Shown here in pieces: positions 4,614-63,900 of a DNA stretch of 64,000 bases (positions within the stretch are counted from its first letter, which is position 1; every line of letters starts with the position of its first letter). The notes beneath the pieces are model-generated. The model worked only from the letters and a program-made list of their open reading frames with translations. It made no database searches and had not been told where the DNA came from. The stretch is taken from assembly GCA_951406725.2 (NCBI GenBank), contig OX597816.1, positions 38,688,001-38,752,000 of the forward strand, in the 5' to 3' direction. The DNA comes from Octopus vulgaris (Eukaryota). The position numbers and the translations under genes are program-made.

Positions 4614-5753
4614 TTAATGATGGATTCAGTAGATGAGAGCTACAGATCCTCATGTACAGGGAGTTAGTCTTTTGCACTTTCCATTTCTTAGTTTTGTTTT
4701 ATTTTTGCTCTTTTTCTACTTGTAGCCTGCATGTTGATTTGTCAATATATCTGAGATTGTTTTTGAGCTGTTACAGATCTCTTTCCCAAAGCTACAACCC
4801 TTGACATGAGGGTTCTGCAATTAATTTTATACTGTGCAGTGACCATAGGTGGGAGCAGTAAGCTTAAGTGGCTATAGTGTACACTCAAGTGAAATTCCTC
4901 ACCCATTTATCATAAATATGGGCACTCAAACATAGCAGATAACAGCTAGCCTTTGGCTGCTATTTGGACCCCGTTGTGTCCACTACTCTGATTGGTTGGC
5001 ACAATTTGTCTCTTACTCTGTCATGCTAATATGTAGCATATAACCAATTGGAGCCCCTAAATAAGATCATGTGAGACAGCCTGTTCTTAACTCAATTTGA
5101 GCCTACTGCTCCTCATAAAAACCCAGCTACTCCTCATCTCGAAGTCTTTGGTTCCAGACCTTTTAAAGTCTAGCCACTGACCACAGAGGACAGCCAGTTA
5201 CAGTGACAACACCAGACGACAACACCCGTCCAACAGCATTATGGCAATCTCTTTCTTCATCACCAACATCTCTATGTACACAGCTCAACCAGCAACACTG
5301 CACAAGTTCCAGTATAGCACTGTTCATGAATTACTTCACCATGGTTAACAGCAAATACAACCTGTGAGAACTCTTGTACAAGAGACCCAGGCAGCAGCAT
5401 TACAGCCACAACTTTGTATGATACATACCGCAACCGGCTCTGCTTCAGCACCACAACTTCTTGATACAGTATTTCAATCACTGTATACAATTGACAACAA
5501 ACTGGTATTTCTCATTCTTGTGTCTATGAACATTCATCTAACTTCTTATTATAGACTTCCTGCCTTCTTCGTCGTTATTCTTATATGTACTTAACACACA
5601 CGCATGCATTCATTCCTATACACACATACACTTTGTTCTCAAGATGGCCTGTCTATTATTCTGTATACATGATACACACACAGACACACATGTCAACATA
5701 TTAATAAATCATTATTTACATTTGACGGATATTTGTCCTCATCTTTGTTGTTA

Positions 5754-22819: not shown

Positions 22820-24102
22820 TTGGGTCATCCCATAAATAATGTGATTTTTTTCAATTGCATGTACTAAAAGTCAGAGGGGGACAGGATAAACTACTTGCAT
22901 CAACTTGCTATAAAAGCAGGTAGTAATTTTACTTTGTCCTTATTCTTAGTACCAGTTGTGAAGAGTGCAGTTCGATTTTAATAGTTATTTTTTCAAAGCT
23001 ATAATGGAAGTGACAAAGGAGCATATTCAGCATATTTTGCTTTATGAGTTCAGTAAAGACAACAACATAAAAGAAAGTGTGAGGAATGTTAATGCAGTAT
23101 ATGGGGATTGGACAATAAGCATAAGCCAGTGTCAATGGAGGTTCCAAAAATTCCGAGCCAGCAACTACAGCCTAGAAGATGAGATCCATCCTGGAAGATC
23201 TATAGAGCTCAACAAGGACATCCTGCAAACCCTGGTGGAACAAAGTCCCATCATAACTGTTGAGGAACTAGCAGAAAAGCTTGGATTTGGTCATTCAACT
23301 ATTCATCAACACCTGCATGCCATTGAAAAAGTCAGCAAATTGGGTCAATGGGTTCCTCACAAACTTTCCAAGTCTAATTGTGCACAGAGTGAATGCGTGC
23401 TTTTCTATGCTGTCACGTCTCATGAACGTATCTTTTTTTAACTGAATAGTGACTGGTAATGAGAAATGGATTGTCTATAAAAATGCCAAGTACCAAAGAG
23501 AGTGGGTAGGGAAAAGAGAAACACTAGCACCCCAGGTTAAAGAGAGTCTTCACCCACATGAGGCATTGTTATCTGTTTGGTGAGATATGACAGGTTTAGT
23601 TGACTTTGAACTTTTAAATCAAACAATAACAAAGGAGATTTACTGTGAACAGCTTGACCGGCTTAAGTCAGCATTAGAAGAAAAACGACTATCTTTGGTT
23701 TCAAATGTAAGATGTTCTTTCATCAGGATAATGCTCAACCACATACAGCAAGGATGACATTCCAAAGGCTGGAGCAGTTTGAATGGGAAATGATGCCCCA
23801 CCCACCATATTTGCTGGACATTGCCCCATCTGATTATCATTTATTCCGCAATCTTCAAAATCATTTGGACGGGAAAAATATAAATTCTGTAAACAATGAC
23901 AGAACAGTACTGGAGGAGGATTTTTCGTCACGGACAAGTGAATTTTGGAAGAGGGGCCTTGCAAGTCTAATAGATAGATGGCAGAACATTGTAGAAAATG
24001 AAGGAGAGTATACTTTAGACTAAAAAAGAACTCTGTTTATCTTAATTTTGAAAAATAAAAGAAGTATAAAAAATAAAACGCATTATTTATGGGATGACTC
24101 AA
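22820..24102 (+). mobile_element. Full-length mariner transposon (about 1283 bp)
   Basis: TIRs ttgggtcatcccataaataatg / cattatttatgggatgactcaa with TA target duplication on both sides. Confidence 0.95.
23004..24023 (+). pseudogene. Mariner DD34D transposase, disrupted
   Basis: MEVTKEHIQH...WVPHKL, VTGNEKW (first catalytic D changed to N), HQDNAQPH, HPPYLLDIAPSDYHLF; frameshifts and stops between the two ORF pieces. Confidence 0.93.
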
Positions 24103-38696: not shown

Positions 38697-39900
38697 ATCA
38701 TCATCGTCGTTTAACGTCCGCTTTCCGCGCTAGCACGGGTTGGACGGTTTGACCGGGTCTGGGAAGCCAGGGGCCGCTCCAGGCTCCAGTCTGAATCTGG
38801 CAGAGTTTCTACGGCTGGATGCCCTTCCTAACGCCAACCACTCCGTGAGTGGATTGGGTGCTTTTTACGTGCCACCTGCACAGGGGCCGGAGGGTCCGGC
38901 ATCGTCACGATCGGATTCGAGCATTTTAACGTGTCAGCGGCACGGGGGCAACGAGGTCCGGGGTACTTTGGGGATCGGGGTATTTTGGGGATCCAGGGTA
39001 CTTTGGGGATCCTTGGGATCCGGGGTACTTAGAATGGGTAGGGGGGTACTTAGAATGGGTAGGGGGTATGTGGAATTGCTGCAGAAAGCAGCCCGGGTCT
39101 TTGTAGTCACAGCATATCTCCAGAGATCTCGGTCCTTCGCCATTGCCTCAGTGAGGCCCAATGCTCTGAGGTCATGCTTGACCACCTCATCCCATGTCTT
39201 CCTGGGTCTACCTCTCCCCCTGATACCTTCAACTGTTTGGGAGTGGCACTTCTTCACACATCTCTCTTCATCCATCCGCAGCACATGACCATACCATCGC
39301 AAGCGTCGCTCTTGCACACCACATCTGATGCTTCTTATATCCAGCATTTCTCTCAGGATACTTACACTCTGTTTTGCGTGCACACTGACACTACACATCC
39401 AGCGGATCATGCTAGCTTCATTTCTTTCAAGTCTACGCATGTCTTCTGCAGTCACAGCCCATGTTTCATTACCGTGAAGCATGGCAGTTCGCACACATGC
39501 ATCATATAATCTACCTTTTGCTCTGAGGGAGAGGCCTTTTGTTGCCAGTAGGGGTAGGAGCTTTCTGAACTTTGCCCAGGCTATTCGTATTCTAGTGGTG
39601 ATACTCTCTGTGCATCCACCTCCGCTACTAACTTGGTCTCCCAGGTAGCGGAAACTATCAACTACTTCTAGTTTCTCTCCCTGGAGTGTGATGGAATCTG
39701 TTTTCTGAGTGTCTGTTGTGTCTATTGTCCCTGTGCATCTGCCGCACATGAAAGCTATCTTATCTGTTAATTTCCCTTTAATGTTGCTGCACCTCTTATG
39801 TGTCCATAACTTACATTGGGTGCATCTTATGGAGTTTCTACCTGTACCTTTCCTACAGGTTGAGCAGGGCCACCTACCCGAGGGGATGTGTGTTGAGTAC
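38697..39900 (-). mobile_element. 5'-truncated RTE LINE with an open C-terminal ORF segment
   Basis: Translation EKLEVVDSFRYLG...RRLRWYGHVLRM...GRGRPRKTW plus the conserved 3' terminus; 5' end truncated in a (TA)n tract. Confidence 0.95.
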
Positions 39901-41647
39901 CATATATATATATATATATATATATCCATGTTCTTTTCTTTCTGTCTTAGTGTCGCTGAGATGGGAATTAATTTTGGAGGTGGGATTTTTACAGTCAAGA
40001 AGCCTTCCTCTCACAAATACTCACTTGCTTTTCAGGTAAGCATTTTTATTTATATTCCACAGGTGTTAAGTGCAGAGCAAGCTATTATGTCAGTGTGTCG
40101 ACATCAGTACTGCTTTGCTCCAAAAGTGACAAGCAAATTATCAACATTCATGCACTTTTCCCACCAGTATGCATGCATGCATGCATGTATGTATGTATTT
40201 ATGTATGTATGTATGTATTTATGTATGTATGTGTGTGTGTGTGTGCATATGTATGCATATATATATATATATCTACACATCAGATACATACACAATAGGC
40301 TTAACAGAGTTTCCATCAAATTCATTCACTGGGCATTGGTCAACAAGGGACAATAGTAGAAAACACTTGCCCAAGATGTGTGCCGTACAATAGGACTGAC
40401 CTCAAAACCACATGGTTGCAAAGTGAACTTCGAATGCACACAGATTTGCCTGTGCTGATATATATGATATAGGTGTACATATGTATATTACTGTGTGGGT
40501 GTGTATATATAACATCATCATCATCATCATTATTATTATTTAACATCCACTTTCTGAGCTGACATGGTTTGGATGGTTTAACAGGGAAATGGCAAGCTGC
40601 AGGGGCATGTCAAGTACCACTGTCATCTCTGGCATGGTTTCTAAGGCTGGATGCCATTCCTGATAACAACTACTTCACAGTGTGTACTGGGTGCTATTTT
40701 TGTACCATTGGCACTCGTAAAATTGTCATGTAATGTACAAGACAGAAAAGAATAATGAAAAAAAGGAGGGGCAAAAAAGGGTCACACTCATCATCATCAT
40801 CGTTTAGCGTCCGCTTTCCATGCTAGCATGGGTTGGACGGTTCAACTGGAGTCTGGGAAGCCAGAAGGCTGCACCAGGCCCAGTCTGATCTGGCAATGTT
40901 TCTACGGCTGGATGCCCTTCCTAATGCCAACCACTCTGTGAGTGTAGTGGGCGCTTTTTACGTGCCAGACGAGGCTGGCAAATGGCCACGATTGGATGGT
41001 GCTTTTTACGTGCCACTGGCACGGCGTGCCAAAAATATTTAAGAGTGGATGGTGGAGGTGGGTGGCTTTATGCCAGGTATAGAAAGACTAAAAGTTGGAC
41101 AGAGGGACAAGCAAAGGTGTCTTGCTATAGAGAAGATACATGGCTGAAGGAGAAAAAGGATTGTAGTGGTAGGATGCTGGAGCAAACTCTCAGTATATAT
41201 GCATATGCATGGACTGGATTGGACTGCCTATGTTCAGTCCACTGCCGGACGAAGGCCTCAGCATGTTCTCTCCAATCACGGTTTGATGTGGAAGCCATGA
41301 ATTTGAACTAGATATCATACTGGTTTGAGTTCATTCTGCCACACAGCTTCACATGGGTTGGCAGAGGGGTACCAATGGACATCTAGTTTTATAGATTTCG
41401 ACCCTGTTGACTTCATCCTGAGTTCAGTTACCATTTGAAGCTATTGCTAATGCTTTTCATGAGAACTAATGTCACACAGTTCCAATTCTCCATTCTGCCC
41501 ATCTTTATCTTGTGCCTATGTAAGAACTTGCTTCAATTTCATTTTCTTTCTCAATATCTTTGAAGAAATATGCTCCTTTTCTGGATAAATATTAAGATGG
41601 CCACTTGACCACTTTGTTAACATCAGAGATAATATATATACATCACT

Positions 41648-44787: not shown

Positions 44788-45903
44788 TACATATATATAT
44801 ATATTCACACACACAAAAGCCCCCCACCACTCTTCTTAACATGTCCTCATATATCATTTAGTATGGATGTTGATTATGCATTACTCATGGATGCTCAGGA
44901 GTTGCAAGTCATTCTTTAGTGGAGGGGAAGGAGGATGCGCTGAAATTTCCCATCTTCTTCTACTCAGTTTGTCTGCTCCTGACCTACACAAATATAATAC
45001 CATTCTTTACAACACTGTGTCAGGCAGAGTTCTGGATTAATAATGGTGAAGAAATTTAGGAAGGCCTTGAGAATGTCTTAGTTGTGTTTGCACCATCACA
45101 CATCAGCTGAATGTATCCCCAATTATCAATTCGCTGAAGAAGAAGAAGCATTCGAGAAATGTCATTTGTCCTCCATTCTTGCAATGTGACCAGACAAGTG
45201 CAACTTAGCCCAGCACAGGGAAGTATGGCTACCAGGCAACACTACACAACCAAGGACTTGGGCAACTCATGTGGAATTTATTAAGCTTCTTGGCATACCT
45301 ACTATAAACAATGTATATCTCATTGACATACTGCAAAGTTGGCAGAACAACAATTCTGTAGATCTTCAACATGGTTTCAGTTTTGAAGCTGAGGCCTTTT
45401 TCTTACTCAAAGTCTAGTGAAAGCATTTCTAAGTTTGGTAGTTCTACTGCTGACTTTGTTGTCAATGTAGAGGATTCATGAAATGCTGTTGGCAAGGTAT
45501 GTGGACCTGTAAATGGCCAGTATAATCTGATCCCTGACCATGATGGCAGGTATCACATACTCCTTTTGATTGCAGTCAGAAGAGAGCCTGTTCCTTAACT
45601 GCTGCATCTCAAACACTGAATCTAGACTGAGAGAACAGTTATCTGCTAACAGAAATTGGCACTCCACTTCCTTCTTCACCATGGTTTCAGCTTGGAATTT
45701 TTTAAAGCTGAAAAACTTACCATCAATACAACAATGGATGATGAAGGTATCAGTCAATATGATAGAAAACATCATAGTGGAAACATGTGCCGATGCACAA
45801 CTGTTTTGCAAAGCTTGTGATTTGGAATACTGCCACTGGCTCTTTATCCTTGATTACCCCAGCAAGCAAGCCCTTATAGAATGAGCATAACATAGAAAAT
45901 AAA

Positions 45904-46343
45904 TTGTTATCGCCATATTAATATGGCATTCTTATAGATATAAGAATAATCGCTGCCGCTGGTCAGCTCCATGAGGCCACCGCCATCAAGATAGCTATTG
46001 ATACACGATCTGTATCCATTATAACCTTCGAACAAGGGAGGTCAGTGGCGACACCTGCGGGTCTGACTGCGCTACATTTACAAGGGGCAATACCCCGAAA
46101 CGCGTCTGTAGCTGTCGGACTGGCAGTGTGAAGCGGCTGACCTCCCTTGTTCGAAGGTTATAATGGATACAGATCGTGTATCAATAGCTATCTTGATGGT
46201 GGTGGCCTCATGGAGCTGACCAGCGGCAGCGATTATTCTTATATCTATAAGAATGCCATATTAATATGGCGATAACAATTAATTTCCAGTAAACGCTGCC
46301 GTAATCTCTTTTATAGAGACTTAGTAATTTTAATATTTCTATT
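45904..46343 (+). mobile_element. Young fold-back Penelope-like element with variant hammerhead
   Basis: 144-bp inverted arms (45902-46045 / 46137-46280, one mismatch seen); 12-bp TSD ATAGAAAATAAA at 45892-45903 and 46344-46355. Confidence 0.75.
46061..46120 (+). ncRNA. Variant minimal hammerhead fold (core TTTACAA)
   Basis: gctaca TTTACAA gggg caata cccc GAAA cgcg TC tgtagc; stem I extended by gtctgac/gtcggac. Confidence 0.65.
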
Positions 46344-47638
46344 ATAGAAAATAAACTTGACAGGAAATCTGCACAGAGCCACAATGCAATTGACAGTATC
46401 AAAATACCTCTGTAAGTCTGCAAAAAGTTATAGAGAGCTTATGTTGGTGTTTCTAAAACTTCTGAAGTTAGCATAGTCCAAATCACATGTCCACTGTATC
46501 ATGATCTTTTCTAAAGCCATGCAGGCTCACAGAAAGAAGGTTCTATTCATGATAGGCAATCAGGTGGTTGAACCCTAACCCTAACCCAGTGATTGACAGC
46601 AAGAAAAAGCCCTTTTCTTTTCTTGTTGAAGAGTTGGACTAATGAGACATCCTTGAACTCCAGTGAAATGTCCTCCTGGCACCACACTTTGTGGAAGAAT
46701 CCAGTAAGCCTTGAGATAAGGTGAGGACCACACTTCCAGTACATTTCAGCTAAATTGGTTATCACTTCCAGAGAACTTATCAATGGCTAGATCACTCTCA
46801 ACTTCCTTGATCCCATAAGCTAAAATATACTTAAACACATACACACCAAAACATAAAGTAAAAATCAAATGAATGTCCTTTGGTTTCAATGATGAGCATT
46901 GCAGGAATTCAATCAACTGAAGTACCTCATAAATTAATTATAGTGTAAGTGGATGAATATTCCAAAAACATTTATATTCCTAATGTAATCTTCAGGTAGA
47001 ATCAGCCTAAGAGAATGTGACAAGGCTGTTCTTTTGAATTACGAGGTACTCTATTTGATGGGCTTTCACATGTTCCATCAACTCAATTTCACACATATGG
47101 TTTGAATCAGACTGTGAATGTCATAGTACCAAATCGGAGACTTCATGAATGTGAAGTGAGCCTAACCAGGGAGTGATGCCTGAATTCATACATGCACACG
47201 CATATACTAGTAAGATATGTACGAACATAATTTCTTTTATTTTTTCATTTTTTGCTTTTGCAACACAGCTCGCATTGTACCTCACGATTTCGATACCTTC
47301 CAATAATATCGCTCCCTCGAGAGGGAACGAGCAGCATTGATCCTAAAAGGGGATGTCTTGGTTCTTATTGTTTTCTTGTTTCTGTTATCTTTGAAGACAC
47401 ACAGAAAGCTTCTTGAAACTCCGAGTTTCACATCATTAATTATTCAAATGAACTGTTTCGGTAACTAGAGACATTAAACTCGGAGTGTATACTTCAAGAA
47501 GCTTCAACTTCTAAAATATACACTTTTCTTCATGTACTGAGTGCTTTTTTTACTCGTTTGTAAACAAACTTTCACTGACTCTACAAAAATAATATATATT
47601 ATTAATCTTTGAATACTCTTTTTTTTTTTTCTGGCAGT

Positions 47639-61369: not shown

Positions 61370-63900
61370 CTAAGGCATATTCACTAAGCATGAGGGAATG
61401 AAAGCATCATGATGGGCCTGCATGGCGGAGACAAAAAGTGTCAATAAACCCACCATTCGGTCTTTGGTGGATCAGAGTGGATGTGAGTTGTTCAAACTAA
61501 AACGGATGTGTGCGACTTTTCAGCAGCACTTTGCTTGACTGTTCAGGATGAATGGTAGGACTGATAACAGGGCAGACTTTGGTGTGTACCTGGACAGCCT
61601 GCCACAACTTTCAGCGAGTGAGGCTGAGTGCTGAGAAAGGCCGATAATAGCCATGGAAATACAGGAAATGAAGAGTTGCATGAGAGGTAGATTGCCAGGT
61701 AGGAATGGTCTGCCCTACGAGCTTTATACTTCAATGCCAGACTTGTTTGCAGACGTCTACTGCAACTGGCGGTAGAATGGGAGAATTCCCACTTTTGTCT
61801 GTTGAGGGGCTGTGACACTGTTGAGAAAGGACCCAAACAAGGGGGATGTTATAGAAAATATCAGGCCCATCACTACTCAATGTAGAGCTGAAGATTTTGG
61901 CCAAGGTATTAGCGAAGAGGTTGGCACTTGTGGACAAGCTGGTTGGCGAGGCCCAAACATGTGCCATCCCAACCAGGACTATTCACAATAACCTCCATCA
62001 TTAGAGAGGGTAGGGCTCTGATCAGTTTAGATCAATCTTAAGCCTTTGATAGGGTTGACCATCAATACTTGGCAGCTGTCCTCAAGGCAGCCGGTTTTGG
62101 TCCAGTTTTCTGTGGTTGGGTTGCTGCTTTGTACAGCGGCATCTGCTCGGTTGTTCGGGTGAATGGTCACTTGTTGGAGCCATTCAGCATCTTGCATTCA
62201 GTCTGTCAAGGGTGCCCTCTCTCCTCCCTTCTGTATGTACTGACTCTTGAGCCATTACTGTGGAAGTTGGAGGCTTTGAGGGGTGTCCTGCATAATCTAG
62301 GATGTAGGAGAAGTATGTCTGCTTACGCTGATGATGTCACCATCATAGTGTCAAGCTACAGGCATATAGACCTGATTGGTGACACACTACAAGAATATGA
62401 AGCAGTGATAGGAGCAAAAATTCAATGCGGAAAAGTCAGTGGACTTACAACTCGGCATCTGGAGAGGCAAGTCCATGCTGTCCAGCAGCATCAAGGGGTG
62501 CTGGACAGTCTGGTTTAGTCCGAACCTCTAAATGCAGAAAAACTGGGACGAGGTGACAAGCAGGGTAGTCAATCTCACCCAGAAATGGGCTGAGAGGAAG
62601 CTGTCCCTGAAAGGTCGAGCAGAGGTGGTGAATGCGTATATCGCGTCCATCAGCTATTACCACTTGACTGTCGTCCTTTGCCCTGTTTGCTGGTTGACCA
62701 AGCTGGTGCACGTACTTTTCCACTTTTTGTGAAAGGGGTGCATTCCACTGGTCAGGTGCTCCATCTGCTGTCAACAGCTGCTGAATGGAAGGCTGGGTAT
62801 GCCGTGTTTACTGATGTGCAGACATGCACTGAGGTTGAGCATCTATAGCATTTTCTTGACAGTGAGCAGGTGTAGTCACCATTTGTCAGGCACACTTTTT
62901 CATAGCTCGTCTCTTTGACTGAGCTGCAAACTTGGATTAGGCGTACCAAGGAGGGGTGCTTGGCACCTCGAGTGCCATCAATCACTTACAGCTCTCCGCC
63001 AGGCAGCTAATGCAGTCAGTGGTAGTTCCACTCTAATATTCTATAAAGAACTAGTGGAGGGAAAGTGCAACAATGTTCTCGGGGAAACTCTGGGCATTGA
63101 TGAAGACCAGCTAACTGGTCTGTTTCGGAGAACTTTCAGGCTTGGGCCTATGGATAACTCCAGTGATCCTTTGCCTGGCAGTGCTACCGAGGGGCACTGC
63201 CTATTCAAGATTAACTTTACAGGCATAGAAGTGCCATCAGCCGTTCCTGCCCTAGGTGTCCCCACAATGATGAAACCGTTCTGCACTCCCTAGTCCAGTG
63301 CCTGAGTATTGCTGACCTGTGGTTTTATGTCAAACACTTGCTGTTGCATGTAGGACAGATCTGGCTATCCATTGTGAAGATTGCCTCACTGGCCTCTTTT
63401 AGCTGGGAGGGGGCAGGCAATTTTTATTTCTCCAATGGATGTAGTGAAAGAGGTAGTATGGTGAACTCATTTGAAAGAGCTAAAGACAGACACTTTCCTC
63501 CTTGGCCAAGCCCTCATCAACTTTTTCAAGTTTCACTTGACATGGAAGTTGAGGCCAAAGGAAGTGTTGCCTCGTAGCAAGTTTGTTGGAAGAATGGCCA
63601 GTGTGAAAGGACCGATTCTGAGCATGCACCTGTAAAAAGGGAATTAAAGGAGAAGGGCTCTTGCCCTGTTGATCAAGCACCCGTGGCTTTTCTGGGTTTT
63701 TCCACGAGGACCTTAAAGCATCTCCCCTTTGAAAATTTTAATTTATTCAATTTTCATTGTTATTCATATTGTTTACGCACAGAAAACCCATTGTATCGTC
63801 CCATTTTCGTCTTTTATGTTGTTGCATTTCCTTTAATGTGAGCCCATGTGGCTAATAAAACAATGAATTATTATTATTATCATCATCATCATCATTATTA
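61370..63900 (+). mobile_element. Decayed L1/Tx1-clade LINE (RT and C-terminal region)
   Basis: Motifs RPITLLNVELKILAKVLAKRL, AFDRVDHQYL, QGCPLSSLLY, YADD and LSLKGRAEVVN, with many stops and frameshifts; ends aataaa + (att/atc)n. Confidence 0.9.

Follow-up and report, generated by a model that had tools for sequence, protein, structure and literature searches.

A hairpin around a hammerhead motif in Octopus vulgaris is a decayed, head-to-head copy of a likely Penelope-type retrozyme family

The 64,000-nt stretch of the Octopus vulgaris genome analysed here (contig OX597816.1, forward strand; hereafter the window, with positions counted from its first letter) contains two long inverted arms around a hammerhead-like motif, the core of which has T at position 5 (46079) in place of the G5 of type I hammerheads. 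The locus raises the questions of whether this core is that of an inactivated U3-A8 hammerhead or a new core variant fixed in its family, the two alternatives set out in an earlier note on this DNA, and of how a nearly perfect hairpin came to surround a ribozyme motif.

The two arms pair over 144 bp (45902-46045 with 46137-46280) with one mismatch (45982/46200), and beyond a mismatch at 45901 four further base pairs extend the pairing; the spacer between the arms, 46046-46136, is 91 nt long. Computation of the pairing therefore reproduced the arms, mismatch and spacer as previously described, and the perfect 12-bp target-site duplication (TSD) claimed for the locus, ATAGAAAATAAA, is present at both flanks (table 1). 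Among 20,000 random pairs of window positions lying 452 apart, microsatellites included, a 12-nt direct repeat within 6 nt was found at 40. The two palindromes reported for the arms were located at 45912-45947 and 46235-46270, and both are part of the ordinary family monomer; the CpGs, said to be intact, are kept in the right arm at 15 of the 16 family positions. Ordinary monomers show only imperfect complementarity between the stretch upstream of the ribozyme and the downstream side. The window copy has, in place of that stretch and up to the GTCAG at 46041-46045, a perfect reverse complement of the right arm. The earlier reading overlooked that both arms derive from the element itself, present in two copies as a Penelope-type inverted insertion.

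Table 1. Features of the hairpin locus, in positions of the window.
Feature	Position	Strand	Remark
TSD, left copy, ATAGAAAATAAA	45892-45903	+	6 of the last 7 nt agree with the element end; possible priming microhomology
Inverted arm	45902-46045	-	Covers monomer positions ~31-177 (numbering starts at the predicted cut); fixed site A is the outer end
GTCAG junction common to both arms	46041-46045	.	Inside the imperfect stem I extension of the family
Direct arm	46041-46345	+	Runs from the end of one monomer over the predicted cut as far as position 239; fixed site B is the outer end
Hammerhead motif of type I, with a U3-A8 pair and a CGCG palindrome as stem III loop	46071-46112	+	Predicted cut after 46106
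Copy-specific G5-to-T substitution	46079	+	
C-to-T at a CpG, the single arm mismatch	46200	+	Left arm retains the family base
62-nt 'tail' between end sites A and B	46284-46345	+	On the direct arm only
TSD, right copy, ATAGAAAATAAA	46344-46355	+	First AT common to the element end

The motif is composed of stem I (GCTACA at 46071-46076 and TGTAGC at 46107-46112), the core TTTACAA at 46077-46083, with the U3-A8 pair and the T at position 5 as previously read, a GGGG/CCCC stem II, and GAAA at 46097-46100 followed by CGCG and the GTC triplet. The parts and layout of the proposed three-way junction are thus in place, but not its fold in the monomer: the minimum-energy structure of the 91-nt spacer comprises stems I and II only, and stem III, with 2 bp closing a 2-nt loop, is absent from it, so that the junction would form only as a dimer. 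For the ACGCGU palindrome a two-molecule duplex is predicted at −8.9 kcal/mol. As the window copy contains one hammerhead only, it is without a dimer partner in cis. Rfam searches gave 0 families at the gathering score for the whole window and, for 45800-46450 at E values up to 10, no hammerhead match and two chance matches.

The element belongs to a dispersed family with matches on many contigs of the window's own assembly, which was searched as a whole (2.8 Gb, 227 contigs). A similarity search, in which the best 40 of 1,658 first-look candidates were scored, returned 175 matches. Whole-genome pattern counts gave 238 exact G5 cores of the window's subfamily (subfamily 1; control, 0), 1,289 cores with another base at position 7 (control, 1) and 1,045 with other stem III loops (control, 3), for a lower bound of more than 2,500 U3-G5-A8 cores in all. 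The core consensus, TTGANAA...GAAAC..GTC, contains what a type I hammerhead requires, namely the 3-8 pair, U4, G5, A6, A9, GAAA and an NUH triplet. The monomer delimited by two predicted cut sites (in locus L018) measures 364 nt and has no long ORF, its six frames being full of stops; tandem arrays reach about 5.5 units and cross the predicted cut site.

Stem covariation, named earlier as a check of the fold, was found for both stems across subfamilies, with paired changes in stem II (GGGG/CCCC, AGGG/CCCT, GAGG/CCTC) and in stem I (GCTACA/TGTAGC, GCTGCA/TGCAGC, TCTGCA/TGCAGA, TCCACA/TGTGGA), G-U forms being also common; the hammerhead reading of the family is therefore sound. The stem III loop was CGCG in 82 of 127 cores, CATG in 35, CTAG in 6, CCGG in 1 and non-palindromic in 3, a tally biased by the patterns used for fetching. 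With a pattern that allowed 12 dinucleotides, of which 3 are palindromic, a by-eye count of the 100 first-listed of the 1,045 matches gave 98 palindromic loops, and two of the 100 look like chance. Palindromic stem III loops fit the dimer-cleaving hammerheads of Penelope-like elements (PLEs) and retrozymes (PMC6765202; here and below, the cited papers are represented by excerpts), and the family hammerhead is predicted to cleave itself as a dimer. In vitro, 8 of 9 predicted Xenopus retrozyme dimers failed to cleave (bioRxiv 10.64898/2026.07.22.740005).

Against this family background, position 5 can be read. One exact T5 core, at the window's own place, stands against the 238 exact G5 cores, and among 49 aligned subfamily 1 cores from 27 distinct loci 43 read TTGACAA, with six other forms found once each, TTTACAA being one of them and TCGACAA, TTAACAA, TTGACAC and TTGACAG being others. 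The window copy departs from the column majority of its subfamily at two positions only, 46079 and the CpG at 46200 (family mean, 3.3 substitutions per 215 nt; window copy, 2). In five DNA-like runs G accounts for more than 99.9% of the summed contig depth at 46079, a quantity that is not a copy number (232,599.8 of 232,637 in run X3; 239,470.9 of 239,526.1 in X5; all of it in X7, X8 and X2), and the non-G remainder in X3 equals single-copy flank depth. Run X2 carries both junctions of the locus, yet it showed no T at 46079 (about 80% of the run read), and the G5-to-T change may therefore not even be fixed.

It follows that G5 is the standard of the family and T5 ordinary decay in one copy, as in the first of the two alternatives. 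The second, in which a family would have fixed UUUACAA as a new and functional hammerhead core, has in its favour the intact U3-A8 pair and stems of the window copy and one X5 contig that may carry T5 elsewhere (the residual depth of 55.2 is that of record 10, with 4 other letters); it is made extremely improbable by the 1 to 238 ratio of exact matches, by the 1 of 49 aligned cores, by the four other single-copy core changes that are equally frequent, and by the depth of G. Changes of G5 are reported to cut hammerhead activity more than 100-fold (PMC4075628), G5A being a standard inactive control (PMC4027429), and U3-A8 is a published variant in the hammerheads of Schistosoma PLEs (PMC4209133). 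In the excerpts returned by a literature search, no direct assay of G5U in a U3-A8 background was found. From these comparisons, the G5-to-T change appears private to the window copy and likely inactivating.

The origin of the hairpin was approached through the outer ends of 94 distinct loci, 27 chosen by likeness to the window copy (subfamily 1) and 67 by pattern; 27 duplicate loci, L031 (the window again), L124 and L152 (no match) and the PLE loci L095-L123 were dropped before counting. Locus L124 had matched the loose pattern and is not a family member. Head-to-head inversions make up 57 of the 94 loci, the other 37 being in one orientation. As many as 120 of the 151 outer ends fall at either of two sites 62 nt apart, namely site A (monomer 167-181; window ~46283) and site B (monomer 232-245; window 46345). 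Both ends lie at A or B in 35 of the 57 inversions, and 34 of these 35 combine one A with one B (p 1e-9 versus independence; 19 of 20, p 2e-5, among the pattern-picked loci); in the other 22, at least one end lies at neither site. A literature search, limited to excerpts, found no paper giving this A+B pairing as a count in PLEs or terming it twin priming.

TA-rich sequence flanks 97 of the 151 outer ends, the targets being (TA)n or AT-rich. Among the 34 loci inspected for flanking repeats, these measure 12, 12, 13, 8 and 13 bp at L001, L002, L074, L084 and L134, respectively, and are masked by (TA)n at most of the others, so that informative sites give about 8-13 bp. The A+B inversion of the window copy lies in a non-microsatellite target, which is rare for the family, and it is for this reason that its duplication is so clear. 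As a separate observation, identical inversion junctions were found at different places (L003/L011, L004/L005 and L054/L058); duplication, hot spots for junction formation or renewed mobilisation of inverted composites could account for them, and the pairs L004/L005 and L003/L011 perhaps do not count as independent loci.

With a probability of about 85%, the window copy is a 5'-truncated, head-to-head copy of an ORF-less hammerhead family with a unit of ~364 nt, likely a non-autonomous Penelope-type retroelement (non-LTR retrozyme), with a private and likely inactivating G5-to-T substitution. According to this reading, tandem transcripts would self-cleave by means of hammerhead dimers, and they may form circles. 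Supplied in trans, a Penelope-like RT/GIY-YIG protein would nick the two target strands at points some 12 bp apart; cDNA synthesis would be primed at site A from one nick and at site B from its counterpart. These cDNAs would then meet and anneal at complementary ends, which in the window copy would be provided by GTCAG in the extended stem I (the cDNA 3' ends, CTGAC and GTCAG, are complementary), so that the ribozyme would be left in the loop of an almost perfect hairpin. The G5-to-T change and the decay of one CpG would have arisen after insertion. As the direct arm crosses the predicted cut site, the template would have been circular or else an uncut multimer. Units of the younger subfamily 2 diverge by 0.26% within the same arm (31 pairs), 0.55% between opposite arms (7 pairs) and 2.65% between loci (458 pairs), and such near-identity within a locus is consistent with one template for both arms, which may have been a circle; in subfamily 1, that of the window, the corresponding values are 1.92%, 2.38% and 2.36%, with no gap.

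The same hairpin could be imagined to result from a single cDNA that snapped back at stem I and copied itself. The junction indeed sits at a self-complementary stretch of the cDNA, and the 31|282-type junction recurs (in L001, L002, L007, L009 and L012, and close by in L010, L076 and L127). However, the junctions of most inversions are elsewhere, and a fold-back gives no reason for a stop 62 nt short at a fixed site. Nor can it give L009, where the inverted arm, which starts at position 31, has a length of 570 nt, more than its 260-nt first, partner arm could have templated, or L012, where sites A and B are swapped between the arms. Fold-back is therefore regarded as unlikely. Two separately primed cDNAs would fit the junction, the fixed stop at A and the layouts of both L009 and L012. 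Long inverted arms with a flanking direct repeat are also what a foldback or MITE-like DNA transposon with long terminal inverted repeats would display. This origin can be given almost no credence, in that the right arm extends 62 nt beyond the inverted repeat, arm lengths and junctions vary from locus to locus, 37 loci have a single orientation and the tandem arrays run across the predicted cut site.

By the features that can be tested in the sequence, the family belongs to the animal non-LTR retrozymes and is neither an autonomous PLE nor a MITE. Like metazoan non-LTR retrozymes (PMC7229834; bioRxiv 10.64898/2026.07.22.740005), it consists of ORF-less tandem repeats of a few hundred bp (350-390 bp in mussel, PMC7229834; 364 here), with one type I hammerhead per unit, a GC content below 50% and a long TSD where visible. 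It differs from them in being U3-A8 throughout and in the 57 of 94 loci with head-to-head inversions and two fixed ends, an arrangement not described for retrozymes in the excerpts at hand (the word 'inverted' is absent from that of PMC7229834). The hammerheads of the Schistosoma Cercyon PLEs (PMC4209133; about 1,300 matches there) have the same U3-A8 covariation and, as here, occur as opposite-strand motif pairs, 100-700 bp apart, with predicted dimer cleavage; unlike Cercyon, the octopus family has a 6-bp stem I with a long extension, a 4-bp stem II, a 4-nt palindromic loop and no attached ORF.

As to the insertion pattern, the EN+ PLEs Hydra, Neptune and Naiad are described as having partial tandems, an inverted 5'-truncated copy, a tail that is often one-sided and a (TA)n bias (PMC8557442). 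The octopus family shares the partial tandems, the inverted 5'-truncated copy, the tail at one end and the (TA)n targets; it differs in lacking an RT/EN ORF and in the length of the tail (62 nt versus 30-40; PMC8557442). The purified Poseidon PAc protein nicks and extends both strands, with two internal RNA starts that define the tail (PMC11167929), and these two start sites may be likened to the two fixed end sites found here. The junctions of the octopus family suggest priming at short microhomologies, whereas PAc in vitro started at non-homologous sites (PMC11167929).

A Hydra-like PLE of the same genome, which shares the one-of-each end rule, is a candidate helper. A PLE-like fragment beside L086 belongs to an abundant family (best 150 of 8,580 first-look candidates scored) with a 778-aa open frame (copy in L116, 2287-4620, plus strand, C1; also in L117-L123). 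The frame contains RW and DKT motifs as well as, at its C terminus, a GIY-YIG-like part that includes CxxC and CxH but no CCHH, and it has no evident CxCX5C linker; it gave no Pfam family and no meaningful PDB match. Apart from the linker, these motifs match the description of the Hydra clade (PMC8557442) in a by-eye motif comparison, which is not a phylogeny. The pLTR of ~485 nt has its own hammerhead-like motif and two end sites; of 8 loci picked by hand, 6 have one of each site, L123 has one end and L120 is ambiguous. The copies of this PLE are abundant, young and head-to-head at (TA)n. Its hammerhead-like motif (L116 ~4830-4915, plus strand; L096-L114) is CTGANGA...GAAAC ATAT/ATGT GTC in older copies and, in the youngest subfamily, CCGAAGA...GAAAC ATAT GTA (C4, GUA triplet), with a long stem II.

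The PLE and the retrozyme meet in L086 (1040-1764), where a PLE pLTR with its end at the PLE's site B abuts the retrozyme directly, near the retrozyme's site A, with 1.2 retrozyme units and then (TA)n after the junction; the join could reflect a template switch or chimera, or else separate insertions of the two elements into a single TA tract. In L019 (655-1420) another degraded fragment of this PLE family lies upstream of, and in the same orientation as, a retrozyme copy ~100 nt away. The RT plus GIY-YIG ORF of autonomous PLEs is absent from the retrozyme monomer, the tail measures 62 nt in the retrozyme versus about 150 nt in the Hydra-like PLE, and blastn of the retrozyme against one autonomous PLE family found no similarity save a weak 58-nt match in the flank of L123 (E 0.007). 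The pLTR has no alignable homology to the retrozyme, so that the PLE is a candidate partner. No match to the PLE ORF was found in the window by tblastn. Non-repetitive open frames of 62 aa or more number 135 in the window, a set in which short exons would be missed, and 3 of them have Pfam matches, all transposon-like: a Mariner (Mos1-type HTH_48) transposase fragment at 22962-23438, plus strand (E 1e-15), and LINE-like fragments at 38937-40010, minus strand, and 62042-62515, plus strand, one with a weak PHD match, which we take to be RTE-like, and the other with RVT_1 (E 5e-12).

The insertion had also been called young. This stands in relative terms, given the 2 differences from the subfamily majority, and does not stand in the sense of a fresh event. 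Contigs of both junctions are present in runs X3 and X2 (organism label A), X5 (B), X7 (C) and X8 (D), one of which may be the source of the assembly itself, and presence under four organism labels means that the insertion predates the split of those labels. Across X3, X5, X7 and X8 the flanks differ by 0-2 letters per 600-700 nt, and none of the joints listed in the five runs skips the element, contigs being evidence of presence and not of absence. The insertion is recent but not fresh.

That a read-through transcript would be an ADAR or Dicer substrate, as also suggested earlier, is possible in principle. In size and microsatellite load the assembly is like cephalopod genomes, a setting in which RNA editing would be plausible. 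The predicted fold of the read-through RNA is very stable (−336 kcal/mol), and this stability, like the presence of both junctions under four labels, would be expected of a copy kept as a dsRNA substrate in a host transcript. However, the two post-insertion changes match neutral decay (2 versus the family mean of 3.3 per 215 nt), and the inverted form is shared by 57 of the 94 loci, so that nothing singles out the window copy and its retention for this function is very unlikely. In the putative RNA runs X9, X11 and X15 (run type guessed; contigs only), family contigs and patchy, low-depth cover of the flanks were found, with no junction-spanning piece among those listed and no A>G place. In X9 and X15 the same contig runs on from the site B end (window 46345) for 255 nt or more of other sequence, and it may stem from an expressed copy elsewhere.

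The window copy represents a known kind of element in an ordinary state of decay and, as a ribozyme finding, it is a minor one, the odd letter being decay in one copy and U3-A8 a published variant. The one-sided tail, too, is already described for PLEs, and only the end rule, seen at the level of the family, merits further work. The origin of the tails and inversions of PLEs is considered an open question (PMC8557442), and the A+B pairing, along with arm lengths that argue against fold-back, is a genomic readout of how Penelope-type proteins make both. As a tentative proposal, given somewhat less than even odds, one Penelope RT dimer would copy a single circular retrozyme RNA from two fixed starts into both target strands at once, always one start per strand, the extended stem I would join the two cDNAs, and the Hydra-like PLE would be the helper. 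If true, one mechanism would account for the tails and the inversions of PLEs, and the small 364-nt RNA would offer a convenient substrate for testing it.
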